Virus record (IMG/VR): IMGVR_UViG_3300034777_000465
Location: 1 to 32,740 of that record
Reading direction: 5' to 3' (one strand)
Origin: a virus
Taxonomy: Duplodnaviria > Caudoviricetes
Length of the DNA stretch: 32,740 nucleotides
In this document: positions 7,419 through 32,405 of the stretch, piece after piece
Layout of the letters: every line of letters starts with the position of its first letter
Position numbering within the stretch: position 1 is the stretch's first letter
Program-made: the position numbers and the translations under genes
Notes under the pieces: model-generated
The model's input: only the letters and a program-made list of their open reading frames with translations
The model's database searches: none
What the model was told of the DNA's origin: nothing

Positions 7419-7598
7419 TTGTTAATTTTAACTAGAAGAATAGGCGAAAGAATCATCATAGGTGATGATATAAAAGTCACTGTATTGGGTATTAGCAACG
7501 GCCAGGTCAGAATAGGCATTGATGCTCCCAAACAATTACGAGTAGATAGAGAAGAAGTTAGAGAGCGAATCAATAAGGAGCAGGGTAATGACTTTTAG
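7419..7598 (+). CDS. csrA: CsrA/RsmA-family translational regulator
   Basis: TTG start, RBS aaggag; [59 protein letters not shown] matches the CsrA consensus; missed by the ORF track (59 aa). Confidence 0.92.
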
Positions 7599-8467: not shown

Positions 8468-8998
8468 ATGCAAAAACTAACTAAAAAACAAACAATTACT
8501 GCTGTTGTAATTGTATCAATGACGGTAGTAGCTATCGCTCTGGCTGTATTATTCGCGCCAAAAGCAGAGGCAGGAGGCGGGTATATGGGAGCATCGGGTA
8601 ACTATATCGACACACCACTTACCAATCATACAGGGGTCACTCTGCACGGTGGATATAACTTTAATGATTTTTTAGGATTAGAGGGCCGATACCTTGTTAA
8701 TTCATCAGAAGAGGGCCATCAGGGCGCATCTGTCGAAATTGATTCGCTTTATGGCATTTATCTTGTTGGCACCGTTCCTGTTACTGACTCTCTTGGTGTT
8801 TATGTTGTATTTGGTCATTCACGCGCAGAAGTGAGAGCCAGCTATTACTATGATTCTGAGACAGCAAGCGAAAGCTCAAGCTCTTTAGGATTTGGCCTTA
8901 AATATGATTTAGTGGAGGCATGGACAATCAATGCTGAATACACTGAGCTGTTTGATAACATTGACCAATTCAATGTTGGATTGAAACTTAATTTCTAA
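8468..8998 (+). CDS. Outer-membrane beta-barrel protein (OmpA-TM / Ail-Lom-like)
   Basis: Signal peptide ending AEA, GGYNFNDFLGLEGRY, GFGLKYD, alternating beta-strands, C-terminal Phe (VGLKLNF). Confidence 0.85.
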   Translation: MQKLTKKQTITAVVIVSMTVVAIALAVLFAPKAEAGGGYMGASGNYIDTPLTNHTGVTLHGGYNFNDFLGLEGRYLVNSSEEGHQGASVEIDSLYGIYLVGTVPVTDSLGVYVVFGHSRAEVRASYYYDSETASESSSSLGFGLKYDLVEAWTINAEYTELFDNIDQFNVGLKLNF

Positions 8999-27725: not shown

Positions 27726-28378
27726 AATAAGCTCTCCTGTTTGGTTTCGTTGTTGAATCGTTCCGTTGCCGCCTTATAATAATCTTCATCCAGTTCGGTG
27801 CCAACAAAGTCAAAGCCGCCGTAATGGGCTGCTATTGCGCTTGAGCCTGAGCCTAAGTGGGTATCAAGTATCTTGTCGCCTTCTTTGGCGTAGTTGCTTA
27901 ATAGCCATTCGTAGAGCTTAACGGGCTTTTGGGTTGGGTGGATGCGGATTTCTTTGTTTTTCATATCCCCCTGAATCATGCCGTTCCAAGTGTATTTCCA
28001 GATCCTTAAAGCTCTATCAAACGAGCTAAAAGCTAACTCAGCATCACTAAACTTTGTTGCGCCGTTATCCTTATCCCAAACAATCCAGCCCATTGATGGT
28101 GGCAAATAGTGGCTCATGTAGTTAGCGCCCCATACTATCTGATTCTTACTAACCCTAATCAGTTGGTCAAAATAGGATTTATCAGGTATGCGCTTATCCC
28201 AATCTTTAGCAGCAAAAGCAGTCTTATAACTTGCACCTTGACCGCTCTTTCTTTCTTCGCCTGAAAAGGTGTTAGCAGCATCAATCCCATAAGGCGGGTC
28301 AACAATAGCCAAGTCAAAAGCATTGTCATCACAGCTTTTCAGATATTCCATGCAATCACAATTTAGTAATTCAATCAT
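27722..28378 (-). CDS. Orphan DNA amino-methyltransferase (beta class, N6A/N4C)
   Basis: DPPY catalytic motif precedes HPTQKP and the DTHLGSGSS SAM-binding motif. Confidence 0.9.
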   Translation of the reverse strand: MIELLNCDCMEYLKSCDDNAFDLAIVDPPYGIDAANTFSGEERKSGQGASYKTAFAAKDWDKRIPDKSYFDQLIRVSKNQIVWGANYMSHYLPPSMGWIVWDKDNGATKFSDAELAFSSFDRALRIWKYTWNGMIQGDMKNKEIRIHPTQKPVKLYEWLLSNYAKEGDKILDTHLGSGSSAIAAHYGGFDFVGTELDEDYYKAATERFNNETKQESLF

Positions 28379-28908
28379 AATATATCCTTTAAGTTTTTTA
28401 AGTGATCGTTACCAGTTTTCTGTTTGCGCTCTTTAACGCTGCCGTCTTCAAGTTTTAATGTCCGGTTGAGAAGCCAGTGCTGATGCTGTGAGTGCCTTGG
28501 GTCACTGGGGTTGAGGTAAGCATCCGAGTTATGGCCATCAGGGCTGATTGTTTTGTTAGCCATTGCAACGAACTCAGCATAGCTTGGCGGCCAGCTATCA
28601 ATACCATTTTGCTTATTCTTGGCAATATCGCGTTCCATTGACTCAAACGCATAAGACCATTTTTCATCAGTGAGATGCTCGGTTTTACGGCACCAAAGCA
28701 TAAACGTATCTGAATACTTGCCATCAGGGTTAAGCATCTCCCCTTCCGATGAACTCCACTTGTGCCGGTAGAGTTGGGTCATTCTCGTCCATAGTGCGCT
28801 GACTAGCCTCTTCTGCCTCACACTCGGCCCAGATTCGTTTGGCTTGGTCTGCTGTTCGTTCTGTAAGGGATTGTTTTGGCTGATTAGGTCGTTGATGTGT
28901 TTGGTCAT
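28375..28908 (-). CDS. Replication accessory protein (lambda P-position, putative helicase loader)
   Basis: LWTRMTQLYRHKW..., WPPSYAEF; start MTKHINDL at 28908 with RBS aggga; follows the initiator. Confidence 0.55.
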   Translation of the reverse strand: MTKHINDLISQNNPLQNEQQTKPNESGPSVRQKRLVSALWTRMTQLYRHKWSSSEGEMLNPDGKYSDTFMLWCRKTEHLTDEKWSYAFESMERDIAKNKQNGIDSWPPSYAEFVAMANKTISPDGHNSDAYLNPSDPRHSQHQHWLLNRTLKLEDGSVKERKQKTGNDHLKNLKDIL

Positions 28909-29539
28909 TGTTATTTCCCTTTGGAGCGAATAGCCCCTGGTAATCATTCTGAATAGATTGGTCGATAATCTGCTGTTGAACTTCAAAAGCGTAATTAGTT
29001 AAAAGCTTAAATTGTTTATCTGCCGCCTTCTGACTAACCTTCTTTTTCTTTGACTTGCGATAAGCAATCCACTCATCCCATGCAGGCTGATTAATGCCGT
29101 CAGGTATTATTATTTCCTTAGTTATTGGTTTATCGTTATTAGTTATTAGTTCTTGGTTAGCTTTCTTATGGGTTATGTCTGGGTTAGCTAAATTAACCGA
29201 CTGGGTTTCTTTCCCTTTATTCTTGCGGGGTCGGCCTCCCTTCTTGCCGTTAGATCGCGCTATTTCACCTCTGTCATGGTACGCCTTTATCTCAATATCA
29301 CAACGATAAGAGTGCCAACCATCATCTTCTAAGGTGAAGAACTCGGAAAGTATTTGCTCAAATTCATTAACGTAAGAACCCAAGCGCAACCTGCGAATAA
29401 CCGGCTGGGTTTCTTTGGGTATTGGTTTCTCAGTATCGTAATAGAAGTCGATTAGACGACGATAAACAGCCTCTTCTTCAAGGGTGAGATGAACTGTGTG
29501 CAGATTAAAATCCGCAATATTAAAAGGGTAATAGTGCAT
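28730..29539 (-). CDS. Replication initiator, DUF1376/YdaU family
   Basis: MHYYPFNIADF..HLTLEEEAVYRRLIDFYY, NGKKGGRP, WDEWIAYRK, IIDQSIQNDYQGLF. Confidence 0.85.
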   Translation of the reverse strand: MHYYPFNIADFNLHTVHLTLEEEAVYRRLIDFYYDTEKPIPKETQPVIRRLRLGSYVNEFEQILSEFFTLEDDGWHSYRCDIEIKAYHDRGEIARSNGKKGGRPRKNKGKETQSVNLANPDITHKKANQELITNNDKPITKEIIIPDGINQPAWDEWIAYRKSKKKKVSQKAADKQFKLLTNYAFEVQQQIIDQSIQNDYQGLFAPKGNNNDQTHQRPNQPKQSLTERTADQAKRIWAECEAEEASQRTMDENDPTLPAQVEFIGRGDA

Positions 29540-29578
29540 TGTGTCTCGCCAGTTAATGTGGGCCAGTTGATTAAAATG

Positions 29579-29637
29579 CGCGGCAACCTAACTGGTGGAG
29601 GCTTTCAACATGGGAGCAACCCCATATCTATCCGCAA
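29579..29637 (-). ncRNA. Putative structured leader/antisense-type RNA upstream of the replication initiator
   Basis: Three-way junction: gcgg/ccgc, atatggg/cccatgt, agcct/aggtt; begins just after TGCTATAAT (29642-29650). Confidence 0.5.
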
Positions 29638-29657
29638 TTGAATTATAGCAAACCATT

Positions 29658-29810
29658 TTACTCTTTGGTAAGTTTTCTTATCTCAGCCACATAAACCTTA
29701 ATCTGCTCATGCTCTGAGGGGGTGGCGTATATGCCTCGCCGGACGTAGCCTTTATCGAGCTGACGTTGCTTGAAGGCTGCCTGCCTGGTCTTATCATCTT
29801 GAGCGCTCAT
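29658..29810 (-). CDS. Small RHH-like DNA-binding protein (50 aa)
   Basis: MSAQDDKTRQAAFKQRQLDKGYVRRGIYATPSEHEQIKVYVAEIRKLTKE; ATGA-coupled; missed by the ORF track. Confidence 0.55.
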   Translation of the reverse strand: MSAQDDKTRQAAFKQRQLDKGYVRRGIYATPSEHEQIKVYVAEIRKLTKE

Positions 29811-30076
29811 TGCTGAACACTCATTAGCTGGCGAACTTCTGGGGTGTTTTCTGGATATTCATGATTAATTATTTTTGCTTTCATGTACTCGATTTTTTTA
29901 AACCCTCCTGCTTCGTTACGTCGATATTCATTTAGGGCCAGCTCTTTTGCCCAATATTCGTTATTTGCCACCGCCTCTAAATCAATCTCATTATCTGCAC
30001 CTTCAGGCCAGATAACCACGCTCCAAAGTTTTCTAGAATAGTACATCTTTATCCCCTTATGCGCTTTCTGCGCCAT
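29807..30076 (-). CDS. Hypothetical early protein
   Basis: True start probably MYYSRK after RBS aagggg. Confidence 0.55.
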   Translation of the reverse strand: MAQKAHKGIKMYYSRKLWSVVIWPEGADNEIDLEAVANNEYWAKELALNEYRRNEAGGFKKIEYMKAKIINHEYPENTPEVRQLMSVQQ

Positions 30077-30278
30077 CTCTCATTAATTCAATTAGGTCGT
30101 CATATACTTCTGGCATCATACCCTTGTAGCCGTAATTAACCGCTGCACAAGCGGCTGAAGTATTAACCCATGCAAAGCCATCTTTAAGCCATGCCGTAGC
30201 TGATCCGAAGTCTCTATCAATATCAAGATCGGCTCCATGTTTGGCTGCTTCTTGCCTTAGTTGTTTTAGTGTTGCCAT
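30057..30278 (-). CDS. Hypothetical early protein
   Basis: 73 aa, RBS aacggag, directly under a strong promoter. Confidence 0.65.
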   Translation of the reverse strand: MATLKQLRQEAAKHGADLDIDRDFGSATAWLKDGFAWVNTSAACAAVNYGYKGMMPEVYDDLIELMRDGAESA

Positions 30279-30338
30279 TTATTTACTCCGTTTCCTTAGT
30301 TGATGTAAACATTATACACCATGTTAGCACTAACGCAA
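30279..30338 (-). promoter_or_regulatory. Leftward promoter with palindromic operator
   Basis: TTGCGT N16 TATAAT; palindrome GTTAG-N2-CTAAC at 30323-30334; leader caactaaggaaacggagt shared with repeat R1. Confidence 0.7.
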
Positions 30339-30364
30339 GGGTTATTTAATAAATCCCTATTATC

Positions 30365-30449
30365 TTAAAATAGTTATAAATAAGTGTTGCATCATTCAAA
30401 TAGTTTGTTATAATGGTTCTACCAACTAAGGAAACGGAGTTAAAAAAAA
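30365..30449 (+). repeat. Promoter/operator/RBS repeat R1
   Basis: ttaaaatagttataaataagtgTTGCATcattcaaatagtttgtTATAATggtt...aaacggagtt. Confidence 0.9.
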
Positions 30450-30695
30450 ATGAAAGACCTAATCAACCAACTTAAAGATATTGCAAAAAACAACTGCTGC
30501 GCTAGCGGGGATGCACAAGCAAGTAGTGAGCGACTGTATGTTGTTTGCTGGGATTTATCGGCAGGATTTCAATTTGATGTTTATCTGGATGGCAAGCCTG
30601 TATTTGGGCTAACTGAGCAAGCAATAGAGACCCTGCTAATTATTCACTCTTGCGCCCCCAGAGTTGGTAATGACACAAGAAGCTTGGCAGCATAA
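30450..30695 (+). CDS. Cassette ORF 1, hypothetical
   Basis: 81 aa directly after R1. Confidence 0.7.
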   Translation: MKDLINQLKDIAKNNCCASGDAQASSERLYVVCWDLSAGFQFDVYLDGKPVFGLTEQAIETLLIIHSCAPRVGNDTRSLAA

Positions 30696-30700
30696 ATTTA

Positions 30701-30784
30701 TTAAAATAGTTATAAATAAGTGTTGCATTCTTAAAATAGTTTGTTATAATGGTTCTACCAAATACGGAAACGGAGTTAAAAAAA
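30701..30784 (+). repeat. Promoter/operator/RBS repeat R2
   Basis: Near-identical to R1. Confidence 0.9.
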
Positions 30785-31126
30785 ATGAAATCATACGAAA
30801 TAAAAGACTTACCCGAAGCAGTACAACAGAAAATAAGATCAAGATTACGCGCTTTTTCTACGGTGGACGTATGGCAGAAAGCCAACGGTGAATATACCGT
30901 TAGCGCATCAACATTTCTAAGTGCTGGCCCATCCCCTAAATATATTGGCGAATATAAAGCCGAAGATGTCTTTACGATGAACGAGAGGGTTGTTAATTAT
31001 GTTAATGAATTCCGTGAATTTCCCTCCGGCCACAAGTTCAAGTACAACGGCAAAAAAGACTACAGGGCTATGCAAGGTGACTGGACAGTAGCTGAGATGG
31101 TTGACGGTAACATAGCATTTAACTAA
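30785..31126 (+). CDS. Cassette ORF 2, hypothetical (113 aa)
   Basis: Start MKSYEIK at 30785, after the repeat RBS. Confidence 0.75.
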   Translation: MKSYEIKDLPEAVQQKIRSRLRAFSTVDVWQKANGEYTVSASTFLSAGPSPKYIGEYKAEDVFTMNERVVNYVNEFREFPSGHKFKYNGKKDYRAMQGDWTVAEMVDGNIAFN

Positions 31127-31132
31127 AAATTA

Positions 31133-31188
31133 ACAGCGGCAGGGCTTAAAAACCCTGCTGCTGCAACTAAGATAACTGCAATAATTTA
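31133..31188 (+). pseudogene. Relic of the HTH gene, forming a hairpin
   Basis: Translates TAAGLKNPAAATKITA, compared with AAGLKSLAVVTQITG in the intact gene; cagcggcaggg/ccctgctgctg stem. Confidence 0.7.
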
Positions 31189-31270
31189 TTAAAATAGTTG
31201 TAAATAAGTGTTGCGTTATTAAAATAGTTTGTTATAATGGTTACACAAACTAAAAAACGGAGTAAGCATT
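31189..31270 (+). repeat. Promoter/operator/RBS repeat R3
   Basis: TTGCGT N16 TATAAT variant. Confidence 0.9.
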
Positions 31271-31459
31271 ATGAGTAGATTAGCCCCCAAAATGGTAGAA
31301 ATGGAACGCAGCGCACACTATAACCACCTAGCAGAGCAAGAACGTAGTCGAGCCATTGCTCAGTGGTTACGTGCCCACCCTGAAATTGGCGTATTGAATG
31401 GCGGTAAATTTTACAAGATAGTCGATAACGAAATGGTATTTTTAGAACCATTAAGTTAA
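31271..31459 (+). CDS. Cassette ORF 3, hypothetical
   Basis: 62 aa directly after R3. Confidence 0.7.
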   Translation: MSRLAPKMVEMERSAHYNHLAEQERSRAIAQWLRAHPEIGVLNGGKFYKIVDNEMVFLEPLS

Positions 31460-31543
31460 TTAAAATAGTTGTAAATAAGTGTTGCATCATTCAAATAGTT
31501 TTATTATAATAGTTACACCAAATACGGAAACGGAGTTAAAAAA
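31460..31543 (+). repeat. Promoter/operator/RBS repeat R4
   Basis: TTGCAT N17 TATAAT variant. Confidence 0.9.
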
Positions 31544-31696
31544 ATGAAAAAAGTAACAATAAAAACTATTGGCAGCCCAAAATACTCAAACGCTGTTGGT
31601 GGTAAAAAATATAGGGCATGTAAAGTTTATGGCGGTTATCAGGTGATTAGCAAGCGTTTTGGTTTATTCATAGATGATAGGGATGTTATGAAATGA
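31544..31696 (+). CDS. Cassette ORF 4a, basic hypothetical (50 aa)
   Basis: MKKVTIKTIGSPKY...DRDVMK*; missed by the ORF track. Confidence 0.65.
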   Translation: MKKVTIKTIGSPKYSNAVGGKKYRACKVYGGYQVISKRFGLFIDDRDVMK

Positions 31697-31875
31697 GAAA
31701 GCTAATTAAAGATGATGCAACAAAAACAAACAGCTCTGGGACACCGCTTTATTATTCAATACACGAAATTGCTGGCGCAAAAAAGCCCTTTGAAGTAAAG
31801 CTTCCAGGACAATATCCAAGAAGATATAAAAATCTTTCTTCTGCGCTGGAGTCATTTAACAAGGGGTTAAAATGA
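31693..31875 (+). CDS. Cassette ORF 4b, hypothetical
   Basis: 60 aa, ATGA-coupled to 4a. Confidence 0.6.
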   Translation: MRKLIKDDATKTNSSGTPLYYSIHEIAGAKKPFEVKLPGQYPRRYKNLSSALESFNKGLK

Positions 31876-31952
31876 CAGCATCACAACAAGCAAAAGCGGC
31901 AGGGCTTAAAAAGCCTGCTGATGCAGCTAGGCTAACTGCAACAATTTATTAA
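31872..31952 (+). pseudogene. Truncated copy of the HTH gene (26 codons)
   Basis: MTASQQAKAAGLKKPADAARLTATIY*; residues TASQQAKAAGLK are identical to the intact gene. Confidence 0.8.
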
Positions 31953-32032
31953 AATAACTTAAAATAAGTGTTGCGTTATTAAAATAGTTTGTTATAATGG
32001 TTTCACCAAATACGGAAACGGAGATAAAAATT
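31949..32032 (+). repeat. Promoter/operator/RBS repeat R5
   Basis: Core matches R3. Confidence 0.9.
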
Positions 32033-32248
32033 ATGAAACTTTCAGACATATACGGCATAGTAAATTCTGACAAAAATATTGATGTTTTATGGGCTGATGA
32101 CGGTTCACGGGTCACTAAATTTGAAGATAACCTGCCTTTAGTATGGCCCATTAATAGCAGCGTTAGCGCGTACCATGAACATATCAACGGCGGTATTGTC
32201 ATCACAAGAGAAGATGCCGCAAAAATGGGACTACACATTGAAAATTAA
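32033..32248 (+). CDS. Cassette ORF 5, acidic hypothetical (71 aa)
   Basis: Start MKLSDIY at 32033. Confidence 0.7.
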   Translation: MKLSDIYGIVNSDKNIDVLWADDGSRVTKFEDNLPLVWPINSSVSAYHEHINGGIVITREDAAKMGLHIEN

Positions 32249-32405
32249 TTTAACCGCATCACAGCAAGCAAAGGCGGCAGGGCTTAAAAGCCTTGCTGTT
32301 GTAACCCAAATAACTGGCGTATCACCGCAGACATTGATTAACTGGCATAAGCACAAGCCTGATCTGTTTAGGGTGGTTATAGCTGGATGTACTAAAGCCC
32401 CTTAG
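32238..32405 (+). CDS. Small HTH DNA-binding protein, candidate repressor of the array
   Basis: SLAVVTQITGVSPQTLINW HTH pattern; TTG start at 32238. Confidence 0.75.
   Translation: MKINLTASQQAKAAGLKSLAVVTQITGVSPQTLINWHKHKPDLFRVVIAGCTKAP

Follow-up and report, generated by a model that had tools for sequence, protein, structure and literature searches.

Self-targeting leader RNAs of mobile elements

The RNA family closest to the element described here is int-alpA (RF02996, listed as an sRNA), a motif that reportedly goes back to Weinberg et al. 2017 and that, judging by its name, is expected in the context of integrase and AlpA genes. It forms a three-way junction with CUAG, GAAAA and CU joiners and a U-rich tail; in the Rfam consensus, the loop and the tail end are complementary to each other, and its Rfam structure line contains no loop-site pairing. 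The main text of PMC5737381 does not name int-alpA, and loop-tail pairing may be dealt with in its supplement; the accessible parts of PMC13612085, PMC12370729 and PMC5795418 give no mechanism, and PMC2864571 is a further source, of which a table was accessible. In a literature search (mostly without subscription papers), no description of loop-site pairing in int-alpA or DUF1376 leaders was found.

In the IncI/IncB plasmids, a leader loop of repZ pairs near the initiator SD and controls the replication initiator, and the sequence of this loop would set incompatibility. The repZ pseudoknot with its Inc RNA is a comparison system from the I-complex plasmids (PMC10286972, accessible part). According to the accessible part of PMC4825925, IsrK of Gifsy-1 is a 5' leader RNA with short terminated and long read-through forms that pairs with its own message downstream, both in cis and trans; it activates in trans via long helices and translational coupling (orf45-anrP). 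The same part describes P4 CI as a leader RNA of the replication operon that is processed, pairs with two sites in its own transcript by which it is flanked, seqA (upstream) and seqC (downstream), and terminates transcription in the lysogen. Finally, C4 of P1/P7 (RF01695) has three stems and a variable loop that sets specificity, occludes a ribosome-binding site by pairing, is released by RNase P from a longer transcript and applies two loops to two-part targets (PMC5320573, accessible part).

A branched leader directly upstream of a putative replication initiator

The window, i.e., the whole stretch of 32,740 nucleotides analyzed here, represents a virus record of 32.7 kb that is complete and carries direct terminal repeats; it occurs in marine DNA runs, with no RNA run listed as containing it, and has head, tail, lysis and recombination genes. 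A domain search of the whole genome revealed neither a tyrosine integrase (PF00589) nor an S24 repressor domain. The features of the locus are as follows.

28375..28908, minus strand: next gene, weakly P-like helicase loader (phrog_109, E 0.022 only)
28730..29539, minus strand: DUF1376/lambda-O-like gene, 269 aa, probable replication initiator
29118..29159, minus strand: tandem AT-rich repeats within the initiator gene, putatively origin-like
29545..29555, minus strand: far target site, 7 bp to the loop (29555-29549), running into a weak SD-like GGCGAG (29550-29545)
29563..29568, minus strand: near target site AACTGG, complementary to the loop over 6 bp and located 12 nt downstream of the P1 core
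29573..29576, minus strand: U-tract following P1, where a short leader RNA may end
29580..29635, minus strand: three-way junction (P1, UAG joiner, P2, GAAA joiner, P3), from fold, model and covariation in 36 relatives
29585..29603, minus strand: P3 hairpin, with the recognition sequence in its loop (29598-29590)
29607..29628, minus strand: P2 hairpin, whose sequence and length vary among family members
29635-29632 paired with 29583-29580, minus strand: P1, part of the junction
29642..29671, minus strand: sigma-70-type promoter-like site with extended -10 (RNA start predicted near 29635)

The sequence, the coordinates, the two AACTGG repeats (second copy at 29549-29554, minus strand), the initiator ATG (29539, minus strand) and the DUF1376 domain given in a first-pass annotation of this DNA are all present. 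The product of 28730-29539 matches DUF1376 in Pfam (PF07120, E 1.6e-22) and a primosomal protein (E 3e-34) and an O-like protein (E 2.8e-19) among the PHROGs, and from these matches, it is a reasonable inference that the gene encodes a replication initiator. A fold search with this protein gave nothing significant (top rows, ORC2 and DnaD winged-helix domains at E 0.7-1.8), and a sequence search for a related solved structure returned none.

An extended -10 box, already noticed in the first pass, precedes the leader (29571-29640, minus strand) and lies in a promoter-like site matching 10 of 12 positions, with TG (29671-29642). Since a promoter scan of 28500-31000 yielded 6 sites, close to the 5.7 expected, this match alone is no evidence. 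The three-way junction was recovered as drawn in that annotation, being both the minimum-energy and the centroid structure of the 65-nt RNA 29635-29571, and its stability is ordinary (z -0.57 for the leader and 0.04 for the whole region). The SD had been called weak, and with -3.5 kcal/mol, it ranks 40th among 42 elements. The U-tract consists of only U4 and was not called as a terminator.

The two matches of the window's loop (7 and 6 bp) were equaled by none of 10,000 dinucleotide shuffles of the downstream 37 nt, and the loop-complementary 7-mer occurs 8 times in the genome versus 5.2 expected. The near site (29563-29568) is the putative pseudoknot partner of the P3 loop. When the window transcript extends over both sites, its nested minimum-energy fold has P1 and P3 opened, and the loop is paired with the far site (0.95) and with the SD-like GAG. 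When the loop was held on the near site, the unpaired share of positions -14 to +3 rose from 0.45 to 0.69.

Contigs of four runs showed no variant within 29540-29637. In contigs of two runs, a 668-nt deletion places the intact leader behind a promoter near 30320, and in two further runs, another leader stands under the window's promoter. We conclude that leader and initiator behave as a single module beginning at the 5' end of the transcript. Within 30260-32050, the plus strand has five cassettes of promoter plus SD that are almost identical (30381, 30717, 31205, 31476 and 31965), and a sixth, related one is found near 30320 on the minus strand, each preceding a small unknown ORF; exchange at these cassettes is visible between contigs and includes the 668-nt deletion (29637-30306).

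Other parts of the genome deserve mention in their own right. A weakly matched small regulator gene at 32232-32405 contains the loop-complementary 7-mer twice, 28 nt apart (32311 and 32339), and has two shortened look-alikes upstream (31100-31170 and 31874-31950) that also form hairpins. The 15-bp tandem array at both genome ends is, after removal of the 29-nt terminal overlap, a pentapeptide-repeat gene of 117 aa (minus strand, from 269 across the origin to about 32630). A CsrA-like RNA-binding protein is encoded at 7419-7598 (phrog_9500, E 6e-27), and an outer-membrane beta-barrel gene at 8468-8998 is a possible receptor-blocking or moron gene.

Relatives of the leader and their link to int-alpA

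Upstream regions of DUF1376 relatives were collected, 35 of 127 of which matched the scaffold pattern. After removal of the window, a false match (L001) and a duplicate (L170) and addition of four leaders by eye, an alignment of 36 leaders of other DUF1376 genes was used to build model R1, which thus excludes the window. In the window genome, the leader is the best match to R1 (22.7 bits, E 1.9e-5, under a rough calibration), followed by a match of 10.5 bits. With the structure named from the 36-leader alignment and the int-alpA consensus, 15 of 19 scaffold pairs change on both sides in the 36 relatives, and the covariation score was reached in 0 of 500 shuffles. Both the structure and the loop-target complementarity put forward in the first pass are conserved in homologs.

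Among the 214 distinct DUF1376 upstream regions listed (the window's own included), at least 55, not counting the window, bear the leader directly before the gene. R1-type leaders were also found before other genes, which we read from their sequences as a 76-aa gene ahead of the initiator, an HNH-like gene and a methylase-like gene.

An Rfam scan of the window, proposed along with the original annotation, placed no family at the leader, with int-alpA absent even at E 10 and no match to C4, c4-2 or isrK; C4 was likewise absent from 33 locus scans. It is the relatives that point to int-alpA, which was the best Rfam match (at E up to 5) in 11 of 12 leader loci and gave none in the leaderless control; its gathering cutoff of 35.8 bits was passed by relatives in 2 of 20 loci and then in 1 of 13. 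Of the int-alpA features, the window element has the three-way junction, the UAG and GAAA joiners and a U-rich tail, and it is without the CU joiner and the junction G-C pair. The integrase/AlpA gene context is not encountered either, with no PF00589 in the genome and a DUF1376 gene downstream. Because it is linked to int-alpA only via its relatives, we regard the window element as a distant relative of this family and not, by score, as a member.

Several search patterns were discarded. The loose loop-plus-two-sites pattern was too unspecific as a homolog finder (its loci gave no blastn homolog), an exact 19-mer search produced two matches, both in unrelated context, and of the 120 loci with the P1-P2 pattern, 100 were searched with R1 and gave 0 matches. 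No close relative with an altered window-type loop was found, the nearest initiator relatives carrying other upstream regions.

Two divergent window-like leaders with loops complementary to pre-start sites (L185:2890-3003 and L425:1880-2003) were missed by R1. A second branched leader type, with a long closing stem reaching the SD, precedes other DUF1376 genes, including those of the closest relatives (L378, L379, L460, L473, L143, L169, L177, L186, L178, L396, L478 and L496); in 16 loci scanned, these leaders had no Rfam match. DUF1376-group initiators may recruit RNA leaders repeatedly. As for bona fide int-alpA RNAs (L542-L580), the genes directly behind them encode proteins of 100-340 aa without Pfam matches (0 of 30), and one bacterial genome harbors two int-alpA units 700 nt apart (L578 and L580).

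The loop changes together with two downstream sites

The R1 searches contributed 101 full-length hits, to which L185 and the window were added; two truncated hits were left out. L185 failed parsing and L254 lacked a start codon, whereas L127 and L145 could be parsed by hand, and the final set comprised 65 distinct elements with 42 distinct loops. The best and second-best Watson-Crick runs of these loops averaged 6.45 and 4.81 bp with their own downstream stretch versus 4.00 and 3.21 bp with those of others, an excess that 0 of 100,000 permutations reached. A run of at least 6 bp was present in 38 of the 42 own combinations versus 7.7% of mismatched pairs, and the combined value of 11.26 for the downstream stretch compares with 6.48, i.e., background level, for the element's own 40 nt upstream. 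Loops outside the training set behaved alike (13 loops, 6.54 and 5.08 bp, 0 of 50,000 permutations), and the loop and sites of the window were mutually best partners among the 42.

The signal persisted within lineages (n = 7, p 0.0007 for the near and 0.002 for the far site; n = 20, p 1e-5 for near and far alike) and after the loops were thinned to 18 that differ by 4 edits or more (p 1e-5). One lineage has similar flanks throughout, while the loop and both sites change in concert. An outside set was obtained from 39 int-alpA matches in bacterial genomes, of which 36 were parsed (several imperfectly, and one being identical to the L239 element), giving 28 distinct loops. These bona fide int-alpA RNAs, too, match their own sites better than those of others (10.29 versus 8.41, 0 of 50,000 permutations). 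Tested one by one against their own shuffled downstream stretches, only 25 of 42 loops reached p 0.05, partly owing to many loops being anti-SD-like, so that part of the far-site match is expected from SD composition.

Chance complementarity could draw on the ordinary stability of the fold, the 8 genomic occurrences of the 7-mer (5.2 expected) and the missing Rfam match in the window, but it is contradicted by the R1 match and by the held-out, within-lineage and bona fide int-alpA tests, and we give it practically no credence. Very probably, pairing between loop and sites controls initiator expression.

Strand, genomic context and distant targets

Another way to view the three copies of the recognition sequence, one inverted and two direct, is as DNA boxes for the initiator or a small regulator, with RNA pairing being incidental. 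Indeed, G-U pairs are depleted at the ends of the loop-site duplexes (5 seen versus 12.4 expected), so the wobble signature of RNA pairing is absent there. The loop-site duplex energy is moreover lower on the opposite strand in 36 of 42 elements, which composition may explain; the folding energy is lower on that strand in 52 of 65. However, A-C mismatches at the duplex ends are at the level given by composition, which accounts for their apparent excess (37 versus 34.6 expected), unrelated box sequences stand behind near-identical scaffolds, the inverted copy is always located in the P3 loop, and the same layout occurs ahead of unrelated genes. We consider DNA boxes very improbable. In P2, 32 G-U versus 2 A-C cells were counted on the leader strand, and these cells, the promoter and the orientation of the gene all point to the leader (minus) strand.

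Antisense promoter-like sites were not more common at leader-bearing than at leaderless starts (7 of 56 versus 27 of 158, p 0.53), and the window contains one 9-of-12 site. No leader peptide was found in the window, and unrelated short ORFs were seen in 9 of 42 elements. The first-pass annotation had also raised immunity; for immunity of the lysogenic kind, lifestyle offers no backing: a tyrosine integrase was present in 1 of 16 leader-bearing versus 1 of 21 leaderless phage records and an S24 repressor domain in 0 of 16 versus 1 of 21, some of these records being fragments and L185, among the 16, having been counted by eye.

Stretches of 12 nt complementary to the window's P3 occur in the coding regions of the capsid and pentapeptide-repeat genes (shuffle p 0.013-0.02), those in the latter being three units of the repeat gene and probably due to chance. 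Distant targets were rejected as a general feature, since an excess was seen in only 1 of 10 other phages and complements of 12 nt to the window's P3 exist in an unrelated genome as well.

Site layout and a proposed translation switch

Across the family, P1 starts at the predicted transcript start. In 47 of 65 elements, a -10-like box precedes the P1 core by 10-13 nt; in 6, including the window, the distance is 7 nt. Behind P1, a U-rich tract (at least 5 T in 8 nt, within 16 nt) is kept in 37 of 42 elements, the window having 5. The near site begins 9-19 nt (median, 12) behind the P1 core, and the far site ends 0-12 nt ahead of the start codon; the predicted SD is overlapped by the far site in 29 of 42 elements and by the near site in 5. 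Pairing with the far site is shifted in register to the 5' side of the loop in 29 of 42 elements and often bulged, attains 5 bp in only 24 of 42 and is weaker than that with the near site in 28 of 42, the order being reversed in the window. Short forms keep P1 in 39 of 42 cases and leave the loop mostly free in 29 of 42; among the long forms, only 10 of 42 have the loop paired with the far site under nested folding. Like the conservation of the scaffold and the co-variation of loop and sites, the site positions are established features of the leader.

Because loop and sites change together in dozens of related elements, the leader likely is an RNA switch that would limit initiator synthesis, as far as sequence comparison can tell. 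Our preferred reading, to which we assign a probability of roughly 0.5, is that of a divergent int-alpA-like RNA with one variable loop complementary to two downstream sites of its own message, acting as a translation switch. Loop pairing with the near site would create a pseudoknot that leaves the ribosome-binding site open (translation on), while pairing with the far site would close it (translation off). A short leader RNA ending at the U-tract would carry the loop without either site, and surplus short leader could occupy the second site in trans and thereby limit initiator synthesis: with one loop and two sites per message, any extra free loop would drive the message toward off, whichever site it bound. 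We infer both the on/off assignment and this closing by the short leader. The outcome would be negative feedback on replication that depends on dose or time and is specific to phages sharing the loop; co-infecting kin might be excluded as a side effect. Of the RNA switch suggested in the first pass, the conserved structured leader and a loop co-varying with two targets at the initiator start thus hold up, and lysogenic immunity gained no support.

The main rival of this trans-feedback model is a folding timer that works in cis only: the near site pairs first, while emerging from the polymerase, and leaves the message briefly translatable, after which the loop refolds onto the far site and the message stays off, with no RNA acting in trans. 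The near site is indeed transcribed first, at a fixed distance, and the minimum-energy fold of the window's long transcript is the closed one, with the loop on the far site at 0.95. Against this, 28 of 42 elements have their stronger duplex at the near site, the closed nested fold wins in only 10 of 42, and a timer gives no reason for the diversity of loops (42 distinct in 65 elements) or for a U-tract kept in 37 of 42. We therefore find a timer doubtful.

As regards the trans component, the accessible part of PMC4825925 provides a precedent in IsrK, whose short terminated leader acts in trans on its own read-through message, and since the effect there is activation, it also counts against a repressing model. 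If the locus worked as IsrK itself does (PMC4825925, accessible part), the read-through message would be off by default and opened by the short leader in trans or by another factor, which would suit the closed fold and the weak SD predicted for the window. However, the far site overlaps the SD in 29 of 42 elements, so that a trans loop bound there would block the ribosome, and if it bound the near site instead, the cis loop would be released to do the same. Activation of this kind appears improbable to us.

Transcription attenuation in the manner of P4 CI, with pairing governing termination at or behind the leader instead of ribosome binding, would account for the U-tract that follows P1, and P4 CI does cause premature termination via two complementary sites (PMC4825925, accessible part). 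Here, however, both sites are located downstream of the U-tract, so pairing in cis cannot decide termination at that tract, and no target turned up in the 40 nt upstream; we rate attenuation as quite improbable.

Returning to the translation switch, its wider reach can be formulated only tentatively. Int-alpA-type leaders might constitute a widespread, self-contained RNA counter of phages and genomic islands, on through the near-site pseudoknot and off as free short leaders accumulate, the loop possibly serving, in phages without repressor, integrase or antisense gene, as a private key that sets the replication dose and excludes only competitors with the same key. An RNA family with only a predicted fold gains a testable mechanism and is extended to phage replication control. 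If the trans part is true, phages that seem to lack a repressor control dose and exclude kin by RNA alone, and a 100-nt module with a freely changing key of 6-9 nt would offer a compact set of orthogonal riboregulators.

Comparison with known systems

C4 and P4 CI had been named as parallels in the first-pass annotation, a role that falls to int-alpA as the closest family. In contrast to C4, the window leader sits at the predicted transcript start and uses one loop, that of P3 being the loop compared with the sites. The P4 layout, with targets on both sides, was not found: both sites of the window are downstream, in a phage without integrase. As for the IncI parallel drawn at the same time, neither a leader peptide nor evidence for a counter-transcribed antisense RNA turned up at the window leader, which differs from repZ also in having two alternative sites, one of which overlaps the SD. 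While it resembles IsrK in being a 5' leader, the window leader has two short sites, no leader ORF and no Rfam isrK match. From int-alpA, it differs in preceding a phage initiator, and int-alpA's own members show the same match of one loop to two sites. The window leader is therefore real, conserved and mechanistically suggestive, a variant of the known self-targeting leader RNAs of mobile elements.
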